Source of the DNA: a phage
Direction: 5' to 3' (one strand)
DNA: 64,000 nucleotides
Sequence record: NC_135728.1
A program made the translations under genes and the position numbers. Of the stretch, positions 2,533 to 39,463 are shown piece after piece; position 1 is the first letter of the stretch, and each line of letters begins with the position of its first letter. The notes beneath the pieces are model-generated. The model did no database searches. It was not told where the DNA came from and saw nothing but the letters and a program-made list of their open reading frames with translations.

Positions 2533-5500
2533 TATTCAACACTCTCCATCATAAGTTGGGTATCTGTCAGCGCAGAGTTCCAAACTCTTATGTCCTTAAT
2601 ATGACCAAACAAATGTCTTTCTCCTGTTGCCGTTTGACCACCGATACGGATGAAAGCTCCTCCTGCCAGGAACTCCCAAGAAGACTGTGTTTCAGTGCTC
2701 ACCAGTCCGTTAGCAAAAGAGCAAGTTTTACCGTCTTCTTTTATCCTGAACCCCATCTTCAGTTTACGCGCTTTAGCCATCTCGTAGACACGTCTGTTTG
2801 ACCCTCCAATATCGCAGTATGGATACCCATCCTCTGCAATATTTGTTGCAGAACCAAACCCGAGAATAAAAGCTGCGCTCGTCTGGTGTCCTTCTGTGTC
2901 TATAACCCTAGGGGCTGCGTTAGGAGCTTTGCCCCAACCTCTCCAGTTAGCATCCACAGTAGCGGCGATAGTGAACGGTCTAGGTGCTAAGTTATCCGTC
3001 ATCGGGAATTTGCAAAGGTCTGCCGCTCTAGTTACAGGTGAAGATCCTGTGGGAATAAACGAGGACTCGCAAGAACCTAACTCAAATTGAGGTATTGCAA
3101 CATCAACCCAATCCCCTACAACATGCTGAGCACCTTCAGGTGGAGAAATCTGGAACTGGCACCCGATATTCTTGTCAGAGGCCACTGCCTCAAACGTAGC
3201 GGCAATCCTTACCCAAGCAGGTCCGGCTGTTTGCCATCTCTCAGCTTTTACTTTAATTCTCCCAGCTGCACCACCTGTTGTTTTAACTTCAAGTGTTGAC
3301 AGGTTAACATAAGCGTCACCTTGGAATACTGTGGTGGATCCGTCATACATGTCGAATCTTACACGTAATCTCTGGTTCGCTTTACCTCCCCTTGCAATAA
3401 TAGACCCAGTACAGAATTTCTCAGCACCTGTCACATCGGCACCTCTGGTGGCTGGAACTGTAGCAAGGTTTAACGCTGTTGTTTCCACACCGGATGCAGT
3501 GTTTACTGTAAATCTTGCACCTTTTGTGCCGTTGGTGTTTGTTACAGTACCACCAACAGTAATCTGTTGACTGGCTCCCCATTTACTAGGGTCTTCACTG
3601 TTAAGCATTAGGTTTGTCCTTTGCCCTTCAATAAGCAGACCATCTCTTTCAAACCGAGGATGATCGTTCTGAGCAGTAACCATCACACCGCGTTTAGAAA
3701 AGTATGTTGCTGTAGAAGGTCTGGAGAATACCATCTCTCCCTCACCAAGTGCAGGTTTTAAGTTGGAGGTCAAAGGTAACCAAAGATCAGGCATAACTGG
3801 GGCGGTTGTGCTTTCCGGGAAGCTTGTTCTCTTCCAAGGACTCCAAGCCATTCCACTACCAGTGTTATTATAATACCTTTCCCATGTTCCACCAAGGTAC
3901 ATCTTGTAGATCTGAATACAGCCCGTGCCCTCGTTAGCAGAGTTTCTAAGCACAATCAGCGTACCAGCCATCTGCTGTCCAGGCGGGTAATGTCTTTCAG
4001 CTGTAGCGTTAGCATTCGCCTCTTGATGGTAGATACCTTCACGATCTGCTTTATAATCGTTAAGGTCGCTATTCCCCAGTCCTTGACCACGGTGCTGAAT
4101 AACCTTGTTCCACGCTCTGTGATTTCCCTGCTCTATGGAACGGGTATATAGCTGATCTAATCGACCTGCTATCTGGAAAGCATAGTTCCCAGAGAATGCC
4201 ACAGACAACCCGCCAACAACCATCGAACCTTCAGGCCCGTTAACATTACCAGCCATTATTTTAGAAGGGTTGTTATTCCCGAACTGGTTGTTCCAGTCTG
4301 CACCTGTGTGGCATACAAAACCACCAGGAGCTGAGAAAGTGCCATCTTTGTTGAAGTTGTAGAATCTATGGGATGAACCAACAACATCTCTAACAATGAC
4401 CTGACCAGCCTCTGGGGTAGACCTGAACTCTGCCTGACCTTTGAGACCAGCACCATTACCGCATTTAGAGGTAAATGTACCGTTAGTTAAGTCCTCTGTC
4501 CCATCTGATGCACACTGGAATCCTGCATTAGAGAATAAAGCCTTTCTAGGGCTGCCGTAGCACAAATAGTCAAGACCGTCTGCCCATAGCTCGACTTTTG
4601 GCATATTCATTTTGCTCATCACAGCATAGCGTTCAGCAGTGCCTATATAGTGCCACTGTGTACCGCCGCCAGTGTAGAATCCAGAGGTACCTTTGAAGTC
4701 AACAATAGGTCTGGTGTTGGTATTGTTATCTCCAAGAACAGCAAGATTCAAATCTGCCGACTGGAGAGGTGCAACAAACTTAACCCCGTCCTGATTGTTT
4801 GTTACAGAACCAACCTGGTAGTCTTGTTCTTTGGTAAACACCTCTAAAACATTTCTACTTGCGTATATGCTGACAGGGAAAGCACGCGCCTCTGCATAGA
4901 AAGCAACATATTCTTGTTTACCCCTTGTTGGAGCAACCATCCCAAGAATTGCTTTTTCATTCTGGTAGAAATTTACTACTCCGTAGAAAGAGTCCCCTCT
5001 ATCTGTCCACCCACCAGTTCTATAATGACACTGTAAGGTAGCACAGTTCATGGGGTCACCACCAGATGACGACCTAGTAACTATGGTAATATCGGTGCCA
5101 GTAGCTGGAGCATAATACGGATCTGTTCTAACTATAATTGGGTAGTATTTCCCATCTTCCATCCCTGCGGTTCTTGGCAGCGTTAAGAAATCTTTTACGC
5201 CTGCAGCTATAGGAACTCTAAACAGATTCTGAGCCTCTGCCAAAGTTGTAGCCCCAGTACCACCTGCGGCTTGCGGTAAAGGTTCCCACTTGGCCTTCCG
5301 GTTGTTATAAACACCCCATTCCAGAGTGCCGTTACCGGATTCATCCATCCCGCCATCCCAGATGACCATCTTGGCGGCTTTCTTGGATCCCCAGAAGCCT
5401 CTTTCTGCTCCTGAACTACGGATCCACTCTCCGAGTCCCCAGTTTGTCAGCTGACCAGTAAGATCCCCAACCTGCATGTATTTAGGGCAGTCTAGCACGC

Positions 5501-6971
5501 CGTCTTCTCGGAAACCTAAATATCTATGGGTTTCAGATCCTTTTGCACCTTTGTGCAGGTGGATTGTCAACCAAGCCTTATTGTCGTTTCTTACCTCAGA
5601 ATAGATCCTATAACCATGCTCAAGAACACCATCAGTATTATATTTATCTCCATGGAGAATACCTGAGGCAGATTTAACATCTCCAGAGTATTGAGCTAAG
5701 TAAAGGTGCCCGAAGGCTGGTGAGTTGTTTTTACCAAGGCCGATATGAGATCTGAAGGTATCATCGTTACGAGGTCTGACCATCGGCTGCCATGCAGTCC
5801 ACTGATTTGTGTTGGCCTGATAGGTTCTCAAATACCAAACATCTACGTTAGAGAATGGATAGTATTCCTGACGACAACCTGCACCGCCGTTAGCATTGTT
5901 CTGCCAAACAATCAGGTGACCAGCACCAGAACCTGCTGGGTAACCATTTGCCTCGGTGGCATTGGCAGTCATGGGCTGGTAGTATACACCATCCTGATTG
6001 CCAGTCAAATTGTTAATATTGAAATTTGCCTCAAGGGCTGCACGTTGTTTATAAAAAGTTCCTAAATTAATACGTGCACCTGCGGCATCTCTGGCACCTG
6101 TACCACCTTGCTCTATAGCAAGAGGTTGCCATGAAGATGTCTGTTGGTTCCACATGCCCCAACGACCTGTTGCATCAAGCTGCAAGTACCCGGCTGTGTT
6201 TACATCATCACCAGCACGAATAACGGTTCTTGTTGGGTTGTTTGCCTCTAGGCGTTTAAATTCATCACGAAGTGCTATTCTTTTTGTTGTTGCTACACCG
6301 TTGGTTACTGCAATGGTGTACATAGCTCCGGAGGTAGCGCCACGGAAAATACCATCAACAGTTGTAGTATCACGACGAGATACCACACCGTTCAGGAATT
6401 TTTCACCAGCTGCTACGGAAGGGTAGTTAGTAGTTCTTCCCTCTTCAATAACTGCAGGGCCAACAAAATTGACAAGGTGAATAACATCGCCTACAGTGTG
6501 CACGGTACCAAAATCTACCCGCTGTGCAAGTGCTTTAGCATCGTTGGCGGTCTTAACTGTAACATCCATTACATCCTGGACAGACTGACCTTCAGCTGTC
6601 ATAATCATGGATGCGCCAATAGTTGATTCCAGCTCCTCTCTTAATGATGGATCTGTATATACCATCCATGCAGCATCAGTAATCCCACCATCGGAGTACG
6701 GTGAAGATAGTGCAGGAACGGTGTGCGGAAATTCGCCTTTCCAACGCAGGTAGAGGTCTTCCTCTTCGAAGTAGGCAAAATCCATTGGGCCGTTTAACTT
6801 ACCACCTTCCTTAAAGGAGATTACATGAGAAACAGTCCCATCCACATGGACAACATCGCCAATTTTTACACGACGAGTCAGGTCTGGTTGTTGAACAACC
6901 AGGTAATCATCCTCTGTCACTGCGGTAGTGGCAGGAAGAGATTCAATTCTGACAACTTTAATATCAGCCAT
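2532..6971 (-). CDS. long tail fibre protein (1479 aa)
   Basis: Very large ORF in tail module; internal duplicated segments (NNANGGAGCRQEYY / NSANEGTGCIQIYK); C-terminal lectin-like region; N-terminal motif shared with the 9606-10274 protein. Confidence 0.75.
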   Translation of the reverse strand: MADIKVVRIESLPATTAVTEDDYLVVQQPDLTRRVKIGDVVHVDGTVSHVISFKEGGKLNGPMDFAYFEEEDLYLRWKGEFPHTVPALSSPYSDGGITDAAWMVYTDPSLREELESTIGASMIMTAEGQSVQDVMDVTVKTANDAKALAQRVDFGTVHTVGDVIHLVNFVGPAVIEEGRTTNYPSVAAGEKFLNGVVSRRDTTTVDGIFRGATSGAMYTIAVTNGVATTKRIALRDEFKRLEANNPTRTVIRAGDDVNTAGYLQLDATGRWGMWNQQTSSWQPLAIEQGGTGARDAAGARINLGTFYKQRAALEANFNINNLTGNQDGVYYQPMTANATEANGYPAGSGAGHLIVWQNNANGGAGCRQEYYPFSNVDVWYLRTYQANTNQWTAWQPMVRPRNDDTFRSHIGLGKNNSPAFGHLYLAQYSGDVKSASGILHGDKYNTDGVLEHGYRIYSEVRNDNKAWLTIHLHKGAKGSETHRYLGFREDGVLDCPKYMQVGDLTGQLTNWGLGEWIRSSGAERGFWGSKKAAKMVIWDGGMDESGNGTLEWGVYNNRKAKWEPLPQAAGGTGATTLAEAQNLFRVPIAAGVKDFLTLPRTAGMEDGKYYPIIVRTDPYYAPATGTDITIVTRSSSGGDPMNCATLQCHYRTGGWTDRGDSFYGVVNFYQNEKAILGMVAPTRGKQEYVAFYAEARAFPVSIYASRNVLEVFTKEQDYQVGSVTNNQDGVKFVAPLQSADLNLAVLGDNNTNTRPIVDFKGTSGFYTGGGTQWHYIGTAERYAVMSKMNMPKVELWADGLDYLCYGSPRKALFSNAGFQCASDGTEDLTNGTFTSKCGNGAGLKGQAEFRSTPEAGQVIVRDVVGSSHRFYNFNKDGTFSAPGGFVCHTGADWNNQFGNNNPSKIMAGNVNGPEGSMVVGGLSVAFSGNYAFQIAGRLDQLYTRSIEQGNHRAWNKVIQHRGQGLGNSDLNDYKADREGIYHQEANANATAERHYPPGQQMAGTLIVLRNSANEGTGCIQIYKMYLGGTWERYYNNTGSGMAWSPWKRTSFPESTTAPVMPDLWLPLTSNLKPALGEGEMVFSRPSTATYFSKRGVMVTAQNDHPRFERDGLLIEGQRTNLMLNSEDPSKWGASQQITVGGTVTNTNGTKGARFTVNTASGVETTALNLATVPATRGADVTGAEKFCTGSIIARGGKANQRLRVRFDMYDGSTTVFQGDAYVNLSTLEVKTTGGAAGRIKVKAERWQTAGPAWVRIAATFEAVASDKNIGCQFQISPPEGAQHVVGDWVDVAIPQFELGSCESSFIPTGSSPVTRAADLCKFPMTDNLAPRPFTIAATVDANWRGWGKAPNAAPRVIDTEGHQTSAAFILGFGSATNIAEDGYPYCDIGGSNRRVYEMAKARKLKMGFRIKEDGKTCSFANGLVSTETQSSWEFLAGGAFIRIGGQTATGERHLFGHIKDIRVWNSALTDTQLMMESVE

Positions 6972-29950: not shown

Positions 29951-30027
29951 TGGTCTCCACGGAGTGATTCGAACACTCGACCTCCTGATCCCAAATCAGG
30001 CGCTCTACCAAGCTGAGCTACGCGGAG
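29951..30027 (-). tRNA. tRNA-Pro (anticodon UGG)
   Basis: Manual fold: acceptor CTCCGCG/CGTGGAG, D-arm GCTCAGCTTGGTAGAGC, anticodon loop TTTGGGA, T-loop TTCGAAT, encoded CCA. Confidence 0.8.
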
Positions 30028-30038
30028 TATTTATAATT

Positions 30039-30113
30039 TGGTGGCCCTGGGTGGAATTGAACCACCATCTGGCGATTATGAGTCGCTTGCTTGAACCTTC
30101 CAGCTACAGGGCC
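30039..30113 (-). tRNA. tRNA-Met (anticodon CAU; could alternatively be a lysidine-modified Ile2-type)
   Basis: Manual fold: acceptor GGCCCTG/CAGGGCC, anticodon loop CTCATAA, T-arm GGTGGTTCAATTCCACC, encoded CCA. Confidence 0.75.
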
Positions 30114-30114
30114 A

Positions 30115-30190
30115 TGGTGCTGATGGCAGGACTTGAACCTGCAACCTATTGATTACAAATCAATTGCACTGCCAATTGTGCTACATCAGC
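30115..30190 (-). tRNA. tRNA-Thr (anticodon UGU)
   Basis: Manual fold: acceptor GCTGATG/CATCAGC, anticodon stem ATTGA/TCAAT with loop TTTGTAA, T-arm GCAGGTTCAAGTCCTGC, encoded CCA. Confidence 0.85.
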
Positions 30191-30196
30191 AAAAAG

Positions 30197-30294
30197 GTGC
30201 TAGGCGGTGGAATCGAACCACCTATGTATTCAACGACTACCTCGTCTATTTTCAGGATTAAAAATCCTCGCCCTTGCCAAAGGGCTTACCTAGC
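30197..30294 (-). tRNA. atypical tRNA-like gene (about 98 nt; canonical acceptor and T-arm, aberrant anticodon/variable region, CCA not fully encoded)
   Basis: Acceptor GCTAGGT/GCCTAGC and T-arm GGTGG-TTCGATT-CCACC are canonical; only a 4-bp AGGA/TCCT stem with loop TTTTTAA and a ~30-nt region before the T-arm; positions 8-9 are AA. Confidence 0.4.
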
Positions 30295-30392
30295 TCAGTA
30301 TGTTGACCATGTTGCTAGTCGGCGATGACGACTGTAACATTTGATAATCCGGTTCTGCTTCCGGCTTTCGCTTAATTACAAGGTCAACAATG

Positions 30393-30483
30393 TGGCGGAG
30401 AGTAATGGAATCGAACCATCATCGAGTCATCCTCAATGGGACGGTTTTCAAGACCGCTTGAGCACCATTGCTCCCTACCCTCC
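30393..30483 (-). tRNA. tRNA-Ser (anticodon UGA), class II with long variable arm
   Basis: Manual fold: acceptor GGAGGGT/ACTCTCC, anticodon stem GCGGT/ACCGT with loop CTTGAAA, long variable arm, T-loop TTCGATT, encoded CCA. Confidence 0.75.
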
Positions 30484-30598
30484 TTTATAAATTATACTGA
30501 TAATGACACTGATTTTCGAGCAGTTAGTGACTAGTATAAACGACGATAAATATCAATGCCATTATCTGTATTATTTACGCATCTAAAAAATATAAATT

Positions 30599-30685
30599 TG
30601 GTGGGGAGTGGTGGAGTCGAACCACCCGAGTCGCAATGACAATAGATTTACAGTCTACACCGCTACCTCTACGGGATAACTCCCC
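30599..30685 (-). tRNA. tRNA-Tyr (anticodon GUA), class II
   Basis: Manual fold: acceptor GGGGAGT/ACTCCCC, anticodon stem GTAGA/TCTAT with loop CTGTAAA, T-arm GGTGGTTCGACTCCACC, encoded CCA. Confidence 0.8.
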
Positions 30686-30689
30686 AATT

Positions 30690-30764
30690 TGGCACCCCGT
30701 ACTGGACTCGAACCAGTGTCAACGGCTTAGAAGGCCGCTGCTTTATCCACTAAGCTAACAGGGC
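30690..30764 (-). tRNA. tRNA-Arg (anticodon UCU)
   Basis: Manual fold: D-arm GCTTAGTGGATAAAGC, anticodon stem GCGGC/GCCGT with loop CTTCTAA, T-arm ACTGGTTCGAGTCCAGT, encoded CCA. Confidence 0.8.
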
Positions 30765-33700: not shown

Positions 33701-34255
33701 TTACTCCCTGCTGTCAATATCAAAACTCATTGCAATACGGTATGCCTCTTCTAATGGTAAGAGTCTCCCCCACACATCCCAACCGACATCAAACTGTCTA
33801 CCAAACAACTGTTGTGTGGTTCCGTGAGCATGACCGAACAGTTGGACTGATCCGTGATGCTTTCTGTTCCACGTTGCAAACTGGTAATGGCTCATACAGA
33901 TCAAATTCTTGTTGTGGCGAAGCTCGTAATAATCTACAACCTCATGACCGAACTCTTTCATAATTCTGACAGTCGTCCTTGTGTCATGGTTGCCACGAAC
34001 AAGAATAATATGTCCGTTCAACATATTTAGAATATCTGGAAGTAAGTTGTTGATATTCTTATCATTAGTGCACGCAATATCTCCCAGGTGGAACACAGTG
34101 TCTGCAGGTGACACAACTGAGTTCCACTCGGTGATGATTCCCGCATTCATACTGTCAAGATTGTGATCATATTGAGATCTGTGTTTTTGACATGAATCAA
34201 ACTCCATGACCCGCTGGTGGAGAAAGTGCGTATCGCTTGTTACAAAGTATTTCAT
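33701..34255 (-). CDS. calcineurin-like metallophosphoesterase (putative RNA 2',3'-phosphatase of an RNA-repair set)
   Basis: Motifs DTHF, GDIA, GNHD, GHAH; start set at internal Met with GAGGAA RBS just after the kinase stop. Confidence 0.65.
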   Translation of the reverse strand: MKYFVTSDTHFLHQRVMEFDSCQKHRSQYDHNLDSMNAGIITEWNSVVSPADTVFHLGDIACTNDKNINNLLPDILNMLNGHIILVRGNHDTRTTVRIMKEFGHEVVDYYELRHNKNLICMSHYQFATWNRKHHGSVQLFGHAHGTTQQLFGRQFDVGWDVWGRLLPLEEAYRIAMSFDIDSRE

Positions 34256-34262
34256 ACATTCC

Positions 34263-34673
34263 TCATTTAAGTTTAATGCAGTTTTTAAGCTGGCGTTCCA
34301 TACGATCCACAACCTTGTCTGGAACATCATGAATGCTTTTATTACCGTGGCGGTTTTCAACCACGATTACGGTATAACTATACCCATGACTGATTGCCAT
34401 GTCAACATATTCCTGCACATGTTTTTCTTTTGTAAACGTATTACTTACCACGATACGGTCGTATCCCATACACATCATATCTTCTACGTTATCTTTGCAC
34501 CATTTTGCTGCGAGTGTTACTTTACTTGCATCCCAGTTGTAATTGCCGTCATCGTCATACCAAAACATGTCATTCTCAAAATGTGGATACAGACCTTCTA
34601 AAGATAGCGCATTTGCCAGTGTTGATTTGCCAGACCCTGGCAGACCACGCACGATATATAGCATTTTAGACAT
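34263..34673 (-). CDS. P-loop polynucleotide kinase-like protein
   Basis: Walker A GLPGSGKST near the N-terminus; start at Met of MSKMLYIVRG with GGAGG RBS 7 nt upstream; ORF-track N-terminal extension judged spurious. Confidence 0.6.
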   Translation of the reverse strand: MSKMLYIVRGLPGSGKSTLANALSLEGLYPHFENDMFWYDDDGNYNWDASKVTLAAKWCKDNVEDMMCMGYDRIVVSNTFTKEKHVQEYVDMAISHGYSYTVIVVENRHGNKSIHDVPDKVVDRMERQLKNCIKLK

Positions 34674-34773
34674 AGCAATCCTCCGTTTTAATTTTAATGA
34701 TAGTATACCTAACTGTTTTGTTAATTTCAAGTGTTGACACCAGGTTGTTTGTGTGGCAGGATAGACTGACAAA

Positions 34774-35709
34774 ATGACAAATGAGGAACGTATGATGAAG
34801 TATTTTAATGCAGATGACCTAGTAGACAAAGGTCTTGTAACCAGTCGGTATTATCCAGATCTTGGATTAAAGATCTATAAATATGCCAGAAAAGTATTCT
34901 ACAACAATCTGTGGCATTTGTCTCCGCGTTTACTGGAGTGCCGAGGTATTGTTGTTGGCAATGAGGGGAATGTTGTGGCATGGCCTTTCACAAAAGTATT
35001 CAACTTAGGAGAAAACTCCACCAACCTACCGGACAGTAAACTTGTTACTGCGGTAGAGAAAAAGAACGGATTCCTCGGTGTGGTATCATCTCATAAAGGT
35101 GAACTATTGTTCTCAACAACCGGGTCTCTTGATTCCCCATATTGTAACCTCGCAAAAGAAACCATCAGGGAGCAATGTGGTAATTTAGATCTTATCAAGA
35201 AGGTTATGGGCAATGAAAACATGACATTCATGTTTGAAATTTGCCACCCTTCAGATCCGCATATTGTTCAGGAAGATCATGGCGCATATTTGATAGGTTG
35301 CAGATATAATGATTCTGGAATAATGCTACCAGAAGCAGCTTTAGATGGGATTGCCAAATACCTTGGTGCAAAACGTCCTCACACTGTGCGTGAAATTCCG
35401 TTCAGCTATGCAAAAGAATTAGCTGCAGAAACAAGAGGTGAAGGGTATATGATTCGTAAGCCTTACTACCCTTATGATCTGCAGCTGAAGATCAAGTCTC
35501 CATACTATCTGGCACGGAAGGCAGTAATGAGGGGTAAAGCTTGGAAGATTTGGGATGATGATATCTTTAAACGTGTTGACGAAGAGTTTTACGGTATGGT
35601 AAAATTTATTCGTAGCAACTATACAGAAGATGTGTGGAATTGCTTATTAGAGCAGGAGCGTCGTGAGATACTGGACTACTATTTCCACAACGAGGACTAT
35701 ATGCAATGA
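34774..35709 (+). CDS. RNA ligase, T4 Rnl1-like
   Basis: Stretches resembling T4 RNA ligase 1 as recalled: LECRGI, KVFNLGEN, nucleotidyl-transferase motif I KKNGFL, LFSTTGS. Confidence 0.65.
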   Translation: MTNEERMMKYFNADDLVDKGLVTSRYYPDLGLKIYKYARKVFYNNLWHLSPRLLECRGIVVGNEGNVVAWPFTKVFNLGENSTNLPDSKLVTAVEKKNGFLGVVSSHKGELLFSTTGSLDSPYCNLAKETIREQCGNLDLIKKVMGNENMTFMFEICHPSDPHIVQEDHGAYLIGCRYNDSGIMLPEAALDGIAKYLGAKRPHTVREIPFSYAKELAAETRGEGYMIRKPYYPYDLQLKIKSPYYLARKAVMRGKAWKIWDDDIFKRVDEEFYGMVKFIRSNYTEDVWNCLLEQERREILDYYFHNEDYMQ

Positions 35710-36056
35710 AGAAGTGGATTGTGTGGCTTGATGATTTTAGAGATCCGTCAGATTATGGACTCCCAGACGCTCTGTGGCTAAAGAATTCTTCTGAGTTTAT
35801 GGATTTTCTTAATGATAAGAGAAAGCTCTACAGACGCGTATCTGAGTGGTATTTTGACAATGATCTAGGTGAAGTGCTTGAAGGGTACGACTGCTTCTCT
35901 GCGCTAGAGGAGAAATTTGTATTCGGAAAGCCACCACTTATTGACAACGTGATTATTTTCGTGCATACTTCTAATCCATCGGCAGCTCGTAAATTTATGC
36001 TTGCTGCTGACTCATTCAAGAAGTTTGGAATAGAGATCAAACAAAACATCTACTAA
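35706..36056 (+). CDS. hypothetical protein (116 aa) within the ligase/Sir2 operon
   Basis: ORF track; start overlaps the ligase stop. Confidence 0.5.
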   Translation: MKKWIVWLDDFRDPSDYGLPDALWLKNSSEFMDFLNDKRKLYRRVSEWYFDNDLGEVLEGYDCFSALEEKFVFGKPPLIDNVIIFVHTSNPSAARKFMLAADSFKKFGIEIKQNIY

Positions 36057-36064
36057 GGACATTT

Positions 36065-36826
36065 ATGCGACGACTGATTATTATCTCCGGTGCTGGTTTG
36101 AGCGCTGAATCTGGTATTCCAACTTTCCGATCTGGTAGCACTGCAATGTGGGAGAATTTCAGCATCGATGAGGTGTGCAACATCCACACCTTTGCCAAGA
36201 ACTACTATAAGGTGCATGACTTTTACAATGCACGTCGTGTAGCTCTGGGCAGTGTTGATCCTAACCTTGCACATCTTCGGATCGCTGAGTGGTATTCCCG
36301 CTGGCCTGGTCGTGTGATCAACCTTACCACCAATGTAGATGATTTGCTGGAGCGTGCTGGTGTAAAACATGAAGATATTTTACATGTCCACGGGTATTTG
36401 CCTGAAATCACCTACGAAGATGCTGAAGGTAACGATGTAATTAAAAATATCGGATACACGGAGGTAGATACAGGCAAGTATACCTGGGTTAAGCCTAATG
36501 TAGTGTTCTTCGGTGAGGTTGCTCCTAAGTATACAGACATGTATGACCTGTTGACATCTCTCACAAGCAATGATATGGTGATCCTGGTAGGTTGTTCTAA
36601 CACAGTTATTAATTTTAACTGGGAATTGTTTCCTGCTACTTGTAAAGGCACAAAACTGCTGATTGTAAACAAGTATGACTCGCAGAGTGCAGATGGAAGT
36701 GGCATTTCACGTAGCGACCTTTATCAATATGAGGATCGCGGGATCCCTGTATGGTTTAACGGTGCTGTTGACGCTTTCTCTGATAAAGCATTTATTGAAA
36801 CTGTAGAAAACTTTATGGAACTTTAA
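36065..36826 (+). CDS. Sir2-family (sirtuin-like) NAD-dependent protein lacking the zinc ribbon
   Basis: Sirtuin signatures GAGLSAESGIPTFR, TNVDDLLERAG, HVHG, VVFFGE, ILVGCS; no CxxC pairs between the HG and FFGE motifs. Confidence 0.7.
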   Translation: MRRLIIISGAGLSAESGIPTFRSGSTAMWENFSIDEVCNIHTFAKNYYKVHDFYNARRVALGSVDPNLAHLRIAEWYSRWPGRVINLTTNVDDLLERAGVKHEDILHVHGYLPEITYEDAEGNDVIKNIGYTEVDTGKYTWVKPNVVFFGEVAPKYTDMYDLLTSLTSNDMVILVGCSNTVINFNWELFPATCKGTKLLIVNKYDSQSADGSGISRSDLYQYEDRGIPVWFNGAVDAFSDKAFIETVENFMEL

Positions 36827-36839
36827 AAGGAGACCTTTA

Positions 36840-37553
36840 ATGCTGAATACTAAACTGATCGACAACCTGGAAAAACTGTCTCAGCCTGAAAACTACCTTT
36901 GGTCTGCCAACTGGGTGGAAAACTGGAACCGTGTGGCAGCTAAAGTGAAAAAATCATACACACCATTCGAATTACAGCTTAGCTTCATTGAGGAAGAGTT
37001 CAATGAGGTTTTGGAAGAGCTGGAGAAAGGTGATGGTGGAGATCACCTGCTAAAAGAGGCCTGCGATCTTCACGTTGTCACAAGTTATGCCGCTTATCTT
37101 GTTAATGACAATCACGAAAAGTGGTCAAACCTGTTTGATAATCCACGAGGTCTTAAGTTCAAGATCGGTGAGTTCTATGATACACTGATCGCTGCGAAAA
37201 ACACATCCAAGCAAAGAGCGTCAGCTTACCGCTTAGCGGAGTTGTCAACAGCTTTGCTGTTCCAGCTTCGCGGAGATGTGTGTGGGATGATGCGGAAGGT
37301 TCTCAAATCTAATGACAGTAAGTTTGCACGGATCAACCATCTACGGCATTCACACGGTGCCAGTGCAGATATGCCTGCTGAACAACTCATCGAGTTGGAG
37401 ATTAAAGATCTTGAGCGTCGTTTTGGTGGTCGCTACGAAGGTTTCGTTGCTAAAGAGGAGTTCTACAACGGCAATAAAGTTATTATATTCCTTGACAGTA
37501 AAGGTAAGATTATGAAGCCTTCGAGCTTCAAGGATGTAACAGAGTATATTTAA
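36840..37553 (+). CDS. MazG-like nucleoside triphosphate pyrophosphohydrolase, putative
   Basis: EExxE-type motif FIEEEFNEVLEELEKG followed by KEACDLHVV, resembling all-alpha NTP pyrophosphatases. Confidence 0.4.
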   Translation: MLNTKLIDNLEKLSQPENYLWSANWVENWNRVAAKVKKSYTPFELQLSFIEEEFNEVLEELEKGDGGDHLLKEACDLHVVTSYAAYLVNDNHEKWSNLFDNPRGLKFKIGEFYDTLIAAKNTSKQRASAYRLAELSTALLFQLRGDVCGMMRKVLKSNDSKFARINHLRHSHGASADMPAEQLIELEIKDLERRFGGRYEGFVAKEEFYNGNKVIIFLDSKGKIMKPSSFKDVTEYI

Positions 37554-37557
37554 CAAC

Positions 37558-37584
37558 ATAGCCGGGATTACCCGGCTTTACTTA
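37558..37584 (+). terminator. rho-independent terminator
   Basis: gccgggattacccggc hairpin followed by TTTACTT. Confidence 0.6.
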
Positions 37585-37615
37585 TTATGGAAAGTATGCA
37601 GTGAGGTAGTCAGTT

Positions 37616-37924: not shown

Positions 37925-38180
37925 TCTTGCTAAACCTGTAGAAGCACACCAGTTTGACGGAAGCTCTTCATCAGTATCTGATCTGCAACGGTGGATTGAT
38001 ACTGGTGTGTTTACATCGTCGCCTGTTCGGACCAGAGATATTCGTCGCATGTGTGAGCTTATCGAGCCGTTTGGTAACCTTGTCTTGTACCAGGGAGATT
38101 GGCTAGTTGACTTTATGGGAGACTGGTTGGTAATGAGTAAAGAAGAGATGTTTAAAATTTTTAAGGAAGAGGCCGAGTAA
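37911..38180 (+). CDS. hypothetical protein (89 aa)
   Basis: ORF track; start-stop overlaps. Confidence 0.45.
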   Translation: MPLFNLAKPVEAHQFDGSSSSVSDLQRWIDTGVFTSSPVRTRDIRRMCELIEPFGNLVLYQGDWLVDFMGDWLVMSKEEMFKIFKEEAE

Positions 38181-39463
38181 TGCATCAAATCAAAACAACA
38201 CTGTACGCACTGAACAAAGATGGCAGCTACCAACAGTGGAAAGTATTCACTGATGGCGAAAAGGTTATCGTAGAGTTTGGCAAGCTTGACGGTAAATTGC
38301 AGTACAAAGAGACGGTATGCACACCTAAGAACGTAGGTCGTGCCAACGAGACTACAGCTGAGCAACAGGCCGAGCTTGAGGCTATCAGCAAGTGGGAAAA
38401 ACAAGTCCGCCTGGGGTATGTTGAAAACATGGAAGATTGCGAGCAGGGTGTTGATCTTTTACCCATGCTGGTGCATGACTACCTGAAGCGTGGCAAGGCA
38501 CTTAAATTACCTTGCTGGATCTTGCGTAAGTTAGATGGTCTTCGTCTGCTTGTTGTTTTCCAAAATGGTGAGCCTAAATTTATTTCCCGTGGTAATAAGT
38601 CCTACCCTATTCAAGGAAAGCTTTTAGAGCAACTTCGTTCTTTCCATTCTACCACTAGGATTAAACAACTTGATGGGGAACTATACATTCATGGTCTTCC
38701 TTTGCAGAAAATAGTGTCTCTTGCTAAACGGTGGCGCACACAGGAAGAGATTCAGGCCGAGATCGATAAAGACTATGAGGCAGATAAAAAACGCCGTCAT
38801 GCAGCAATTAAGGCAGGCTTATCAACATACAAAAACTTCAACAAGGTAGATATTCCTGTCGATGTTGAGCCTGTTCGTGATGATTTGCGTTACGGCGGGT
38901 ACTGTAGCTACGATCTGGAGTATCACATTTTTGATATTCCTAGCGACAAGGTGTGGTGGGATCCAGAAACAGAGTCTGGGCGCTGCAAGGATCTTATGGA
39001 TGCAGAGGATACCGTTACCACTCTGATGCTTGATCATATCAAGGTTGTTGACGCAGAGCTTGCGTACACAGTTGATCATTGCGAAGAATCTGTTGGTATA
39101 TTCATGTCCGAAGGATATGAAGGTACTATCATGCGTAATTTCTGCGGTAAATATGAGTATGGTCAGCGAACATCTGAAGCATTGAAATGGAAAAAGTTCA
39201 ACGACGCAGAGGTGAAAGTTATTGACGTTGAGAAAGATAAGAATGATGAAGGTGTTCTTATCTGTGTTGACAAGGAAGGTGTTGTTGTTAAAATGAAGAT
39301 GAAAGGCACGCACGAGGAGCGTAGCTATGACAGGATGCAGGAAATGATCGGCAAGTTTGTCACCTTCAAATACCAAGCAAGGACAGAAGACAACAACTAC
39401 CAATTCCCTGTCGGTATCTGCGTCCGAAATGTTAACCCAGACACTTGGGAGGTGCTTGAATGA
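38180..39463 (+). CDS. ATP-dependent DNA ligase
   Basis: Nucleotidyl-transferase motifs I (RKLDGLR), III (LDGELYIHG), IV (EGYEGTIMR), V (LKWKKF). Confidence 0.7.
   Translation: MHQIKTTLYALNKDGSYQQWKVFTDGEKVIVEFGKLDGKLQYKETVCTPKNVGRANETTAEQQAELEAISKWEKQVRLGYVENMEDCEQGVDLLPMLVHDYLKRGKALKLPCWILRKLDGLRLLVVFQNGEPKFISRGNKSYPIQGKLLEQLRSFHSTTRIKQLDGELYIHGLPLQKIVSLAKRWRTQEEIQAEIDKDYEADKKRRHAAIKAGLSTYKNFNKVDIPVDVEPVRDDLRYGGYCSYDLEYHIFDIPSDKVWWDPETESGRCKDLMDAEDTVTTLMLDHIKVVDAELAYTVDHCEESVGIFMSEGYEGTIMRNFCGKYEYGQRTSEALKWKKFNDAEVKVIDVEKDKNDEGVLICVDKEGVVVKMKMKGTHEERSYDRMQEMIGKFVTFKYQARTEDNNYQFPVGICVRNVNPDTWEVLE

Follow-up and report, generated by a model that had tools for sequence, protein, structure and literature searches.

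A zinc-ligand-less, class III-like sirtuin in a predicted RNA-repair neighbourhood of an rV5-like Escherichia coli phage

Within a 64,000-nt window of phage DNA (sequence record NC_135728.1), we analyzed a gene encoding a sirtuin (Sir2-family protein) that lacks the usual zinc ligands, together with its neighbours, and consider a possible role for it in RNA repair. The gene is a real, intact Sir2-family gene of an rV5-like E. coli phage (Vequintavirus). It occupies third place in a compact operon that comprises an Rnl1-type RNA ligase, a cyclic-phosphate-processing receiver-like protein (cREC), the sirtuin, and a MazG-like protein, and that is closed by a terminator-like hairpin (Table 1). The stop of the ligase and the start of cREC overlap by 4 nt, and gaps of 8 nt and 13 nt separate the sirtuin from cREC and from the MazG-like gene, respectively. 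Diverging from the operon, across an intergenic region of ~100 bp, are the genes for a P-loop kinase and a metallophosphoesterase.

Table 1. Features around the sirtuin gene, in window coordinates.
Feature	Coordinates	Strand	Evidence and remarks
Seven tRNA genes	29951-30764	-	~4-6 kb from the sirtuin
99-nt 'tRNA-???' with four-base anticodon (atcc)	30196-30294	-	ARAGORN; 'tRNA-OTHER Asp|Gly' in the Murica record
tRNA-Ser	30393-30483	-	
Calcineurin-like metallophosphoesterase	33701-34255	-	DTH, GDI, GNHD; Metallophos 24.1 bits vs 21.5; phrog_547 E=1e-52
P-loop polynucleotide-kinase-like protein	34263-34673	-	GLPGSGKS; AAA_33 36.8 bits vs 27; phrog_2071 E=4e-57; phrog_505 'polynucleotide kinase' E=1.6e-9
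Rnl1-type (T4 gp63-like) ATP-dependent RNA ligase, first operon gene	34774-35709	+	RNA_lig_T4_1 55.5 bits vs 28.3; phrog_562 E=1e-65
cREC, 116 aa	35706-36056	+	LDD acidic motif; PF20274 51.1 bits vs 27; phrog_1479 E=8e-33
Sirtuin, zinc-ligand-less, class III-like	36065-36826	+	ATG start, 253 aa, single-domain
MazG-superfamily protein (all-alpha nucleoside triphosphate pyrophosphohydrolase-like), last operon gene	36840-37553	+	phrog_671 'nucleotide pyrophosphohydrolase' E=1.5e-21
Intrinsic-terminator-like hairpin	37560-37577	+	7-bp stem, 6 G-C pairs; coincides with a terminator annotated in phage Murica
Small open reading frame, 102 aa	37616-37924	+	
Small open reading frame, 89 aa	37911-38180	+	phrog_14585
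ATP-dependent DNA ligase	38180-39463	+	Pfam DNA_ligase_A_M and OB_2

The sirtuin, its nearest relatives, and its zinc site

The SIR2 profile of Pfam (PF02146) matches the protein along profile positions 1 to 178 (of 180), at 97.6 bits where the cut-off is 24 (E=1e-27), and phrog_2162, labelled 'Sir2', matches it far beyond chance (E=9e-109). Profile searches thus recovered SIR2 rather than a non-sirtuin Rossmann family, in keeping with the identity proposed in a preliminary description made from the sequence alone, and all four motifs listed there are present: the nicotinamide adenine dinucleotide (NAD) loop GAGLSAESGIPTFR (residues 9-22, nt 36089-36130), TNVDDLLERAG (89-99), HVHG (107-110), and VVFFGE (146-151). 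The key residues lie in the NAD loop (G9-A10-G11, S16, F21, and R22), an anion pocket (Y54 and R57), the T89-N90-V91-D92 stretch, and the catalytic H109. Given that G9-A10-G11, S16, F21, R22, N90, D92, and H109 (within H109-G110) are invariant across 29 diverse clade members and that the family is large (946 word-index homologs), the sirtuin is under selection. An exhaustive profile search for relatives returned 7700 representatives at E<=1e-3, of which 169 also passed E<=1e-30. At the nucleotide level, a 2.9-kb region shares 97-99% identity with Escherichia phages EmilHeitz, naswa, FFH2, Murica, and V5 and matches 120 phage records, in which the sirtuin is named 'Sir2-like protein', 'NAD-dependent deacetylase', or 'cobB'. 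We also noted 18 unannotated 'Campylobacter phage' records (host C. jejuni; e.g., MG065654, MG065666, and MG065676) with ~98% identity across the whole 2.9-kb query (34700-37600), which are probably mislabelled or contaminated.

Following a suggestion in the preliminary description, we predicted the structure of the sirtuin and compared it with solved structures. The AlphaFold2 model, built from a 29-sequence alignment (predicted local distance difference test 89.4, predicted template modelling score 0.88), comprises a Rossmann large domain and a small domain superposable on solved sirtuins. Foldseek ranked CobB at the top, with Sir2Af1 and SIRT5 also in the first ranks (probability 1.00, template modelling (TM) score 0.72-0.83, ~25-27% identity), and the best PDB sequence matches were E. 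coli CobB (E=6e-21) and SIRT5 (E=1e-20); no ThsA- or DSR-type structure appeared near the top of the Foldseek ranking. The phage sirtuin shares its fold, NAD and catalytic residues, FGE loop, and a YxxR pocket with the class III deacylases CobB, SIRT5, and Archaeoglobus Sir2Af1. The YxxR pair (Y54 and R57), the class III pocket (Y102/R105 in SIRT5) with which SIRT5 and CobB bind an anionic group, is invariant across the diverse clade members and present in 161 of 174 zinc-less sequences. Unlike these deacylases, the phage protein reads TTNVD for TQNID and GCSNxVINF for GTSxxVYPA, is devoid of zinc ligands, and is encoded in a phage RNA-repair operon. Given its scores fall far below every NCBIfam CobB and deacylase cut-off (best subfamily 122.7 versus 243; CobB equivalog 103 versus 320), we regard it as a divergent class III-like sirtuin and not a CobB orthologue.

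The protein had already been tentatively set apart from typical NAD-depleting defence effectors on first inspection, and the searches agree with this: no PADLOC family matched at E<=0.01, and the Pfam scan gave no SIR2_2 match. Defence Sir2 NADases (ThsA, DSR1/2, Sir2-HerA, and SPARSA; SIR2_2-type) belong to the same superfamily and likewise have no zinc-binding site, but the whole β-module is missing from them and they are fused to or paired with sensor or partner domains. The phage-encoded sirtuin instead retains the β-module, is recognised by PF02146 but by none of the defence models, has a CobB-like fold, and carries no sensor or partner domain; we therefore rejected its identity as a defence-type NADase.

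Only three cysteines occur in the sirtuin (C38, C177, and C193). None of them lies in the 35-residue insert (residues 111-145) between H109-G110 and V146, where the aligned segment of E. coli CobB contains four, and the Cys4 zinc site of canonical sirtuins is thus absent. In each of the 119 close homologs, the insert contains at most two cysteines (0-2), and a full CxxC...CxxC is found in more distant viral relatives at 40-45% identity. The AlphaFold2 model keeps three β-strands in the insert (110-118, 124-128, and 142-146), and a central (D/N)(I/V)GY hairpin and an insert-ending K-P-N are common to zinc-bearing and zinc-less proteins. When aligned to the nearest zinc-bearing proteins, the first CxxC corresponds to Y117/A120 and the second knuckle falls within ~9 residues that the zinc-less proteins have lost by deletion. 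With hairpin and strands kept and the knuckles substituted or deleted, the β-module has therefore been retained and its ligands lost. 'Without the zinc ribbon', the wording of the preliminary description, holds for the ligands and not for the ribbon itself, and we refined it to a retained module with one knuckle substituted and the other deleted.

Zinc status is tightly coupled to the residue that precedes the catalytic-pocket Asn, which we scored in 136 full-length representatives. Where the insert has at least four cysteines, this residue is Q (TQNxD) in 74 proteins and not Q in 11; where it has 0-2 cysteines, the counts are 9 and 42 (Fisher p=3e-16, kinship among the sequences not corrected for). 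A coupling to the change GTS→GCS/GAS/GSS was also observed (p=3e-8, phylogeny uncorrected). A rough neighbour-joining tree places the phage sirtuin in a clade of 40-42 representatives, 95-97% of them zinc-less, which suggests that zinc loss was mainly one ancestral event.

Genes surrounding the sirtuin

Judged by their domains, the ligase, kinase, phosphoesterase, and cREC make up what is predicted to be a complete RNA end-healing and sealing set. The RNA ligase, with K96 (KKNG) as its candidate motif I lysine, scores below the NCBIfam T4 RnlA equivalog cut-off. The motifs of the metallophosphoesterase mark it as a candidate 2',3'-cyclic or 3'-phosphate end-healing enzyme, and for the kinase, we adopted the start position annotated in Murica. 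Cyclic-phosphate processing by the cREC family is itself a prediction (PMC9503650, PMC7824862). The preliminary description was right that the genes of an RNA ligase and a MazG-like protein share the operon of the sirtuin, and had overlooked cREC between the ligase and the sirtuin. The MazG-like protein had no Pfam, NCBIfam, or PDB sequence match; its homologs carry a weak PRA-PH Pfam match.

The set follows the same logic as T4 Pnkp plus Rnl1 and the bacterial Pnkp(-Hen1) systems, in which a 5'-kinase, a 3'-end phosphoesterase, and an ATP-dependent RNA ligase counter anticodon-nuclease damage. In the window, these functions are split over separate small proteins, and cREC, the sirtuin, and the MazG-like protein are three extras that T4 does not need. 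The DNA ligase further downstream co-occurs with the RNA-repair module in 14-15 loci, and in L023-L031 and L059 (our locus numbers) its distance from the sirtuin is +750 nt; its membership in the functional unit is uncertain. The two small open reading frames between the terminator and the DNA ligase travel with the module in 11-12 loci despite rearranged gene order.

No Macro domain was detected in 10 neighbouring proteins (Pfam and PHROG), so a SirTM-type eraser gene is not adjacent, and the absence of an adjacent macrodomain for the phage sirtuin is likewise noted in PMC9503650. tblastn with NAMPT, PRS, NADAR, RlaP, 2H, Nudix, and HAD_SAK seeds found nothing in the window or in 50 kb of a sister genome; the same 50 kb, read for KptA, Macro, and NAD-salvage genes, is almost entirely annotated as 'hypothetical'.

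Two further features of the region were noted. In the tRNA cluster, the Rfam tRNA model falls below its gathering score both at the 99-nt call with the four-base anticodon, which could be an intron-bearing, frameshift-suppressor, or degenerate tRNA, and at the neighbouring tRNA-Ser. The sign of the GC skew flips at ~34 kb (negative over 1-34 kb and positive beyond), coinciding with the point at which the kinase and RNA ligase genes diverge.

A candidate role in RNA repair and its alternatives

The neighbourhood has been described before. In section 3.7.3 of their survey, Iyer, Burroughs, Anantharaman & Aravind (2022, Viruses 14:1977; PMC9503650) defined it as 'type 2' sirtuin-centred RNA repair, with Escherichia phage V5 and Proteus phage Mydo as prototypes. 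In that type, a sirtuin is accompanied by a T4-like RNA ligase, cREC, a nucleotide kinase, and a MazG-superfamily protein, with a calcineurin-like phosphoesterase as an optional sixth component; all six lie within 33701-37553 of the window, and the content is identical. The sirtuin was predicted there to remove an RNA 2'-phosphate in a KptA/Tpt1-like, NAD+-dependent manner, with accessory enzymes for opening the cyclic phosphate or for the degradation of ADP-ribose cyclic phosphate, a functional assignment reached by comparative genomics. The reading that we rank first, tentatively and short of an even chance, agrees with this independently reached prediction: the sirtuin may serve the phage in repairing RNA (probably tRNA) as an NAD+-dependent enzyme, most likely an analogue of Tpt1/KptA. 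The 'host-takeover or anti-defence enzyme' of the preliminary description was too vague in this respect, given that a neighbourhood with a complete end-healing and sealing set points to the repair of RNA (tRNA), a counter-defence role only insofar as host ribonuclease damage is undone. The likeness to Tpt1/KptA would consist in NAD+-dependent RNA 2'-phosphate removal after ligation, beside a ligase, a 5'-kinase, and cyclic-phosphate openers. It is an analogy and not membership of that family: Tpt1 and KptA have the fold of the ADP-ribosyltransferase superfamily, to which the sirtuin showed no homology; Pfam detected only SIR2 in the protein, its fold is the sirtuin Rossmann fold, and its Tpt1-like activity is predicted.

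The proposed scheme builds on the domains, catalytic residues, operon, and recurrent linkage that were observed; its substrate, every chemical step, and the order of events we infer. A host metal-independent ribonuclease would cleave a tRNA or another RNA and thereby generate ends with a 2',3'-cyclic phosphate and a 5'-OH. The P-loop kinase would phosphorylate the 5' end, cREC and/or the metallophosphoesterase would open the cyclic phosphate, and the Rnl1 ligase would seal the break. In the sirtuin, any 2'-phosphate still present would then act as the nucleophile on C1'' of NAD+, with release of nicotinamide, and the ribose 2''-OH, activated by His109, would attack the phosphate to yield 2'-OH RNA and ADP-ribose 1'',2''-cyclic phosphate. 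The net reaction would be Tpt1/KptA chemistry on a sirtuin scaffold, and cREC together with the MazG-like pyrophosphatase may break down the ADP-ribose by-product. Sirtuin and Tpt1 mechanisms run in parallel, as in both a nucleophile attacks C1'' and a ribose 2''-OH attack then gives a 1'',2''-cyclic species. The departures from deacylases noted above (zinc ligands gone, TQNxD→TTNVD, GTS→GCS, and sub-cut-off NCBIfam scores) also speak for this reading, as does the invariant Y54-x-x-R57 pocket with its affinity for an anionic group.

Support from gene context comes from 80 viral loci that encode relatives of the sirtuin (65 zinc-less and 15 zinc-bearing), which we surveyed within a radius of 4 kb by iterative searches seeded with each neighbour type. 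The Rnl1/kinase/phosphoesterase/MazG set, with or without cREC, was found at 13 zinc-less loci. At 29 others, which are T5-like, the neighbour is an HAD_SAK_2 'Swiss Army Knife RNA repair' phosphatase (directly downstream of the sirtuin in L010, the locus examined), and three jumbo-phage contigs carry the order 2H(Acb1-like)–Sir2–Nudix–cREC–PIN-PhoH; Pfam confirms the HAD_SAK_2 and jumbo-type neighbours. A phosphoesterase is the sole such neighbour at two more. An RNA-end or ADP-ribose-processing neighbour thus occurs at 47 of the 65 zinc-less loci versus 3 of the 15 zinc-bearing ones, and two of those three (L069 and L075) adjoin an Rnl1 ligase. The Mydo-like 145-kb phages have the same gene set in another order and all co-directional, with a DNA ligase immediately 3' of the sirtuin; this recurrence with a different order and strand layout argues for selection on the linkage and not for inherited synteny. 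On a T4-like contig (L083, 4917-8415), genes for RlaP (an RNA-repair nucleotidyltransferase), a remote zinc-less sirtuin, NADAR, an unknown protein, and an HD-domain protein stand in a row; the sirtuin next to NADAR recalls the writer/eraser pairs of nucleic-acid ADP-ribosylation. Four other zinc-less representatives, likewise remote (P0130, P0132, P0135, and P0143), gave no usable context, owing to short contigs or to neighbours lacking annotation.

Two observations from these loci stand apart. The jumbo-phage 2H protein directly upstream of the sirtuin at L063 (5509-5952) matches the Acb1 family much better than generic 2'-5' RNA ligase/2H (60.8 versus 23.6 bits) and so may target cyclic-nucleotide signals rather than RNA ends. 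Between the Rnl1 ligase and the zinc-bearing sirtuin of L069 lies an arginase/agmatinase-family protein (4806-5720, 255 bits), with an equivalent in L075; both contigs are large and viral (266-608 kb).

Several points weigh against an RNA-repair role. As the locus counts are not phylogenetically independent, the contextual evidence rests on a linkage that persists through three architectures and rearranged orders. Eighteen of the zinc-less loci have no recognisable RNA-repair neighbour; in a ~148-kb phage group (L032-L037, L046, L050, and L055-L058) the sirtuin is accompanied by DUF7275/7277, a glycosyltransferase, and AAA_28 instead, which counts against universality of the linkage. Conversely, in related 145-152-kb phages, genes for cREC, a phosphoesterase, Rnl1, a kinase, a DNA ligase, and a MazG-like (PRA-PH) protein stand together with no sirtuin adjacent (L090 1376-4107, L091 642-3539, and L093 1140-4037), so the sirtuin is not an obligatory neighbour of the module; these sirtuin-less modules adjoin divergently transcribed NAMPT-family (PF04095) and phosphoribosyl pyrophosphate (PRPP)-synthetase genes for NAD+ salvage. 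KptA was not seen in the slot of the sirtuin in these three remote cREC neighbourhoods, a small sample. The chemistry raises difficulties of its own. T4 or Clostridium Pnkp removes the cyclic phosphate completely, and if the phosphoesterase of the window does likewise, no 2'-phosphate would be left for the sirtuin. The closest relatives in both sequence and fold are protein deacylases, and the lysine-tunnel residues (F21, V91, H109, V146, F148-F149, and the FGE loop) are all kept, so an RNA phosphate would need to gain access to C1'' by a channel shaped for the side chain of lysine. The acidic isoelectric point of the sirtuin (4.9; clade median 5.1), unlike that of typical RNA-binding enzymes, is a weak point on the same side; as a discriminator between RNA and protein substrates, we found charge uninformative, with CobB and the neighbouring RNA enzymes acidic too. 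Finally, no experimental work on phage sirtuins or on 2'-phosphotransferase activity of a sirtuin was found in the literature, many subscription-journal papers lying outside our coverage.

Second in our ranking, possible but on balance unlikely, is a CobB/SIRT5-like NAD+-dependent protein lysine deacylase, probably preferring acidic acyl groups (succinyl or malonyl), that keeps phage or host proteins active in the course of infection. With the canonical tunnel residues conserved, an acyl-lysine protein substrate is entirely plausible, and the best sequence matches and folds, the Y54-x-x-R57 pair, and the FGE loop are those of such enzymes. Possibly, it deacylates catalytic lysines in the adjacent adenylate-forming RNA and DNA ligases, as CobB reactivates acetyl-CoA synthetase, which would fit a sirtuin that adjoins the RNA ligase gene here and lies directly 5' of the DNA ligase in Mydo-type phages, but T5-like members have no adjacent ligase. 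A zinc-bearing relative at a cellular locus (P0139) adjoins a lipoate-protein ligase, a setting typical of deacylase or lipoamidase sirtuins. Set against this are the low NCBIfam scores, the clade-specific NAD-pocket changes (Q89T and GTS→GCS), and the lasting linkage to three different RNA-end-processing gene sets, which is not expected of a general deacylase. The zinc module, whose ligands are gone here, is moreover stated to be required for canonical sirtuin deacetylation (PMC12700824).

A counter-defence enzyme acting on NAD+ or NAD-derived molecules, by destroying or mimicking ADP-ribose-based immune signals or by ADP-ribosylating a host defence factor, comes third and appears improbable; it corresponds to the anti-defence or NAD-modifying enzyme of the preliminary description. 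The contexts that favour it lie in other phages, namely the jumbo-phage gene upstream of the sirtuin, which fits anti-CBASS Acb1 and is followed by Nudix and cREC genes, the NADAR and HD genes beside the sirtuin of the T4-like relative, and the NAMPT and PRPP-synthetase genes beside the cREC/Rnl1 module of related phages; cREC itself has been proposed to process cyclic ADP-ribose-type molecules (PMC7824862). NAD-salvage, NADAR, 2H, and Nudix genes are absent from the window, however, where the neighbours are specifically RNA end-healing and sealing enzymes. The single-domain protein has neither a PADLOC match nor an SIR2_2-type fold, no sensor or partner domain, and, unlike SirTM systems, no macrodomain partner, and an unregulated NADase would harm the phage. 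Least probable of all is some other RNA-directed chemistry, whether NAD+-dependent deacylation of RNA (N-acetyl-aminoacyl-tRNA from GNAT toxins, or ac4C) or ADP-ribosyl capping of phosphate ends: in its favour are the same RNA-repair context, an active site for amide deacylation that is still intact, and the nearby tRNA genes, but it is inferential, with no specific support, and the end-healing neighbours fit strand breaks rather than base or aminoacyl modification.

Extending the RNA-repair reading from this protein to its clade calls for somewhat more reserve. The zinc-less clade could be the first sirtuin lineage with a nucleic acid as its physiological substrate, made up of NAD+-dependent RNA 2'-phosphotransferases, or of ADP-ribosyl transferases otherwise directed at RNA ends, whose chemistry is convergent with that of Tpt1/KptA, and in which loss of the second knuckle together with the Q→T change would have opened a lysine-sized tunnel to an RNA phosphate.

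What is new and what it may mean

The gene, its clade, and its neighbourhood are already known, with the rV5-like phage type as a prototype. To this, we add a description of how the zinc site was altered, the coupling of zinc loss to substitutions in the NAD pocket, a quantified tally of gene context with its exceptions, and the sirtuin-less modules beside NAD+-salvage genes. A search of PMC9503650 for the terms zinc and cysteine gave nothing relevant, and the TQN→TTN change is not mentioned there either, so the zinc-loss anatomy and its coupling appear to be new, if minor.

The source phages of the sirtuin are culturable E. coli phages (the BASEL collection and rV5), and close relatives occur in T5-like phages. 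Were the protein a plain deacylase, it would mean that a canonical-type sirtuin can do without zinc, which matters for the claim that deacetylation requires the zinc module. Should the published prediction hold, the sirtuin would be a second, independently evolved enzyme for Tpt1 chemistry and the first RNA-acting sirtuin, widening the known scope of the sirtuin scaffold. Phages would then spend NAD+ on repairing RNA cut by host defence nucleases, which would link tRNA-targeting immunity with the conflict between phage and host over NAD+.

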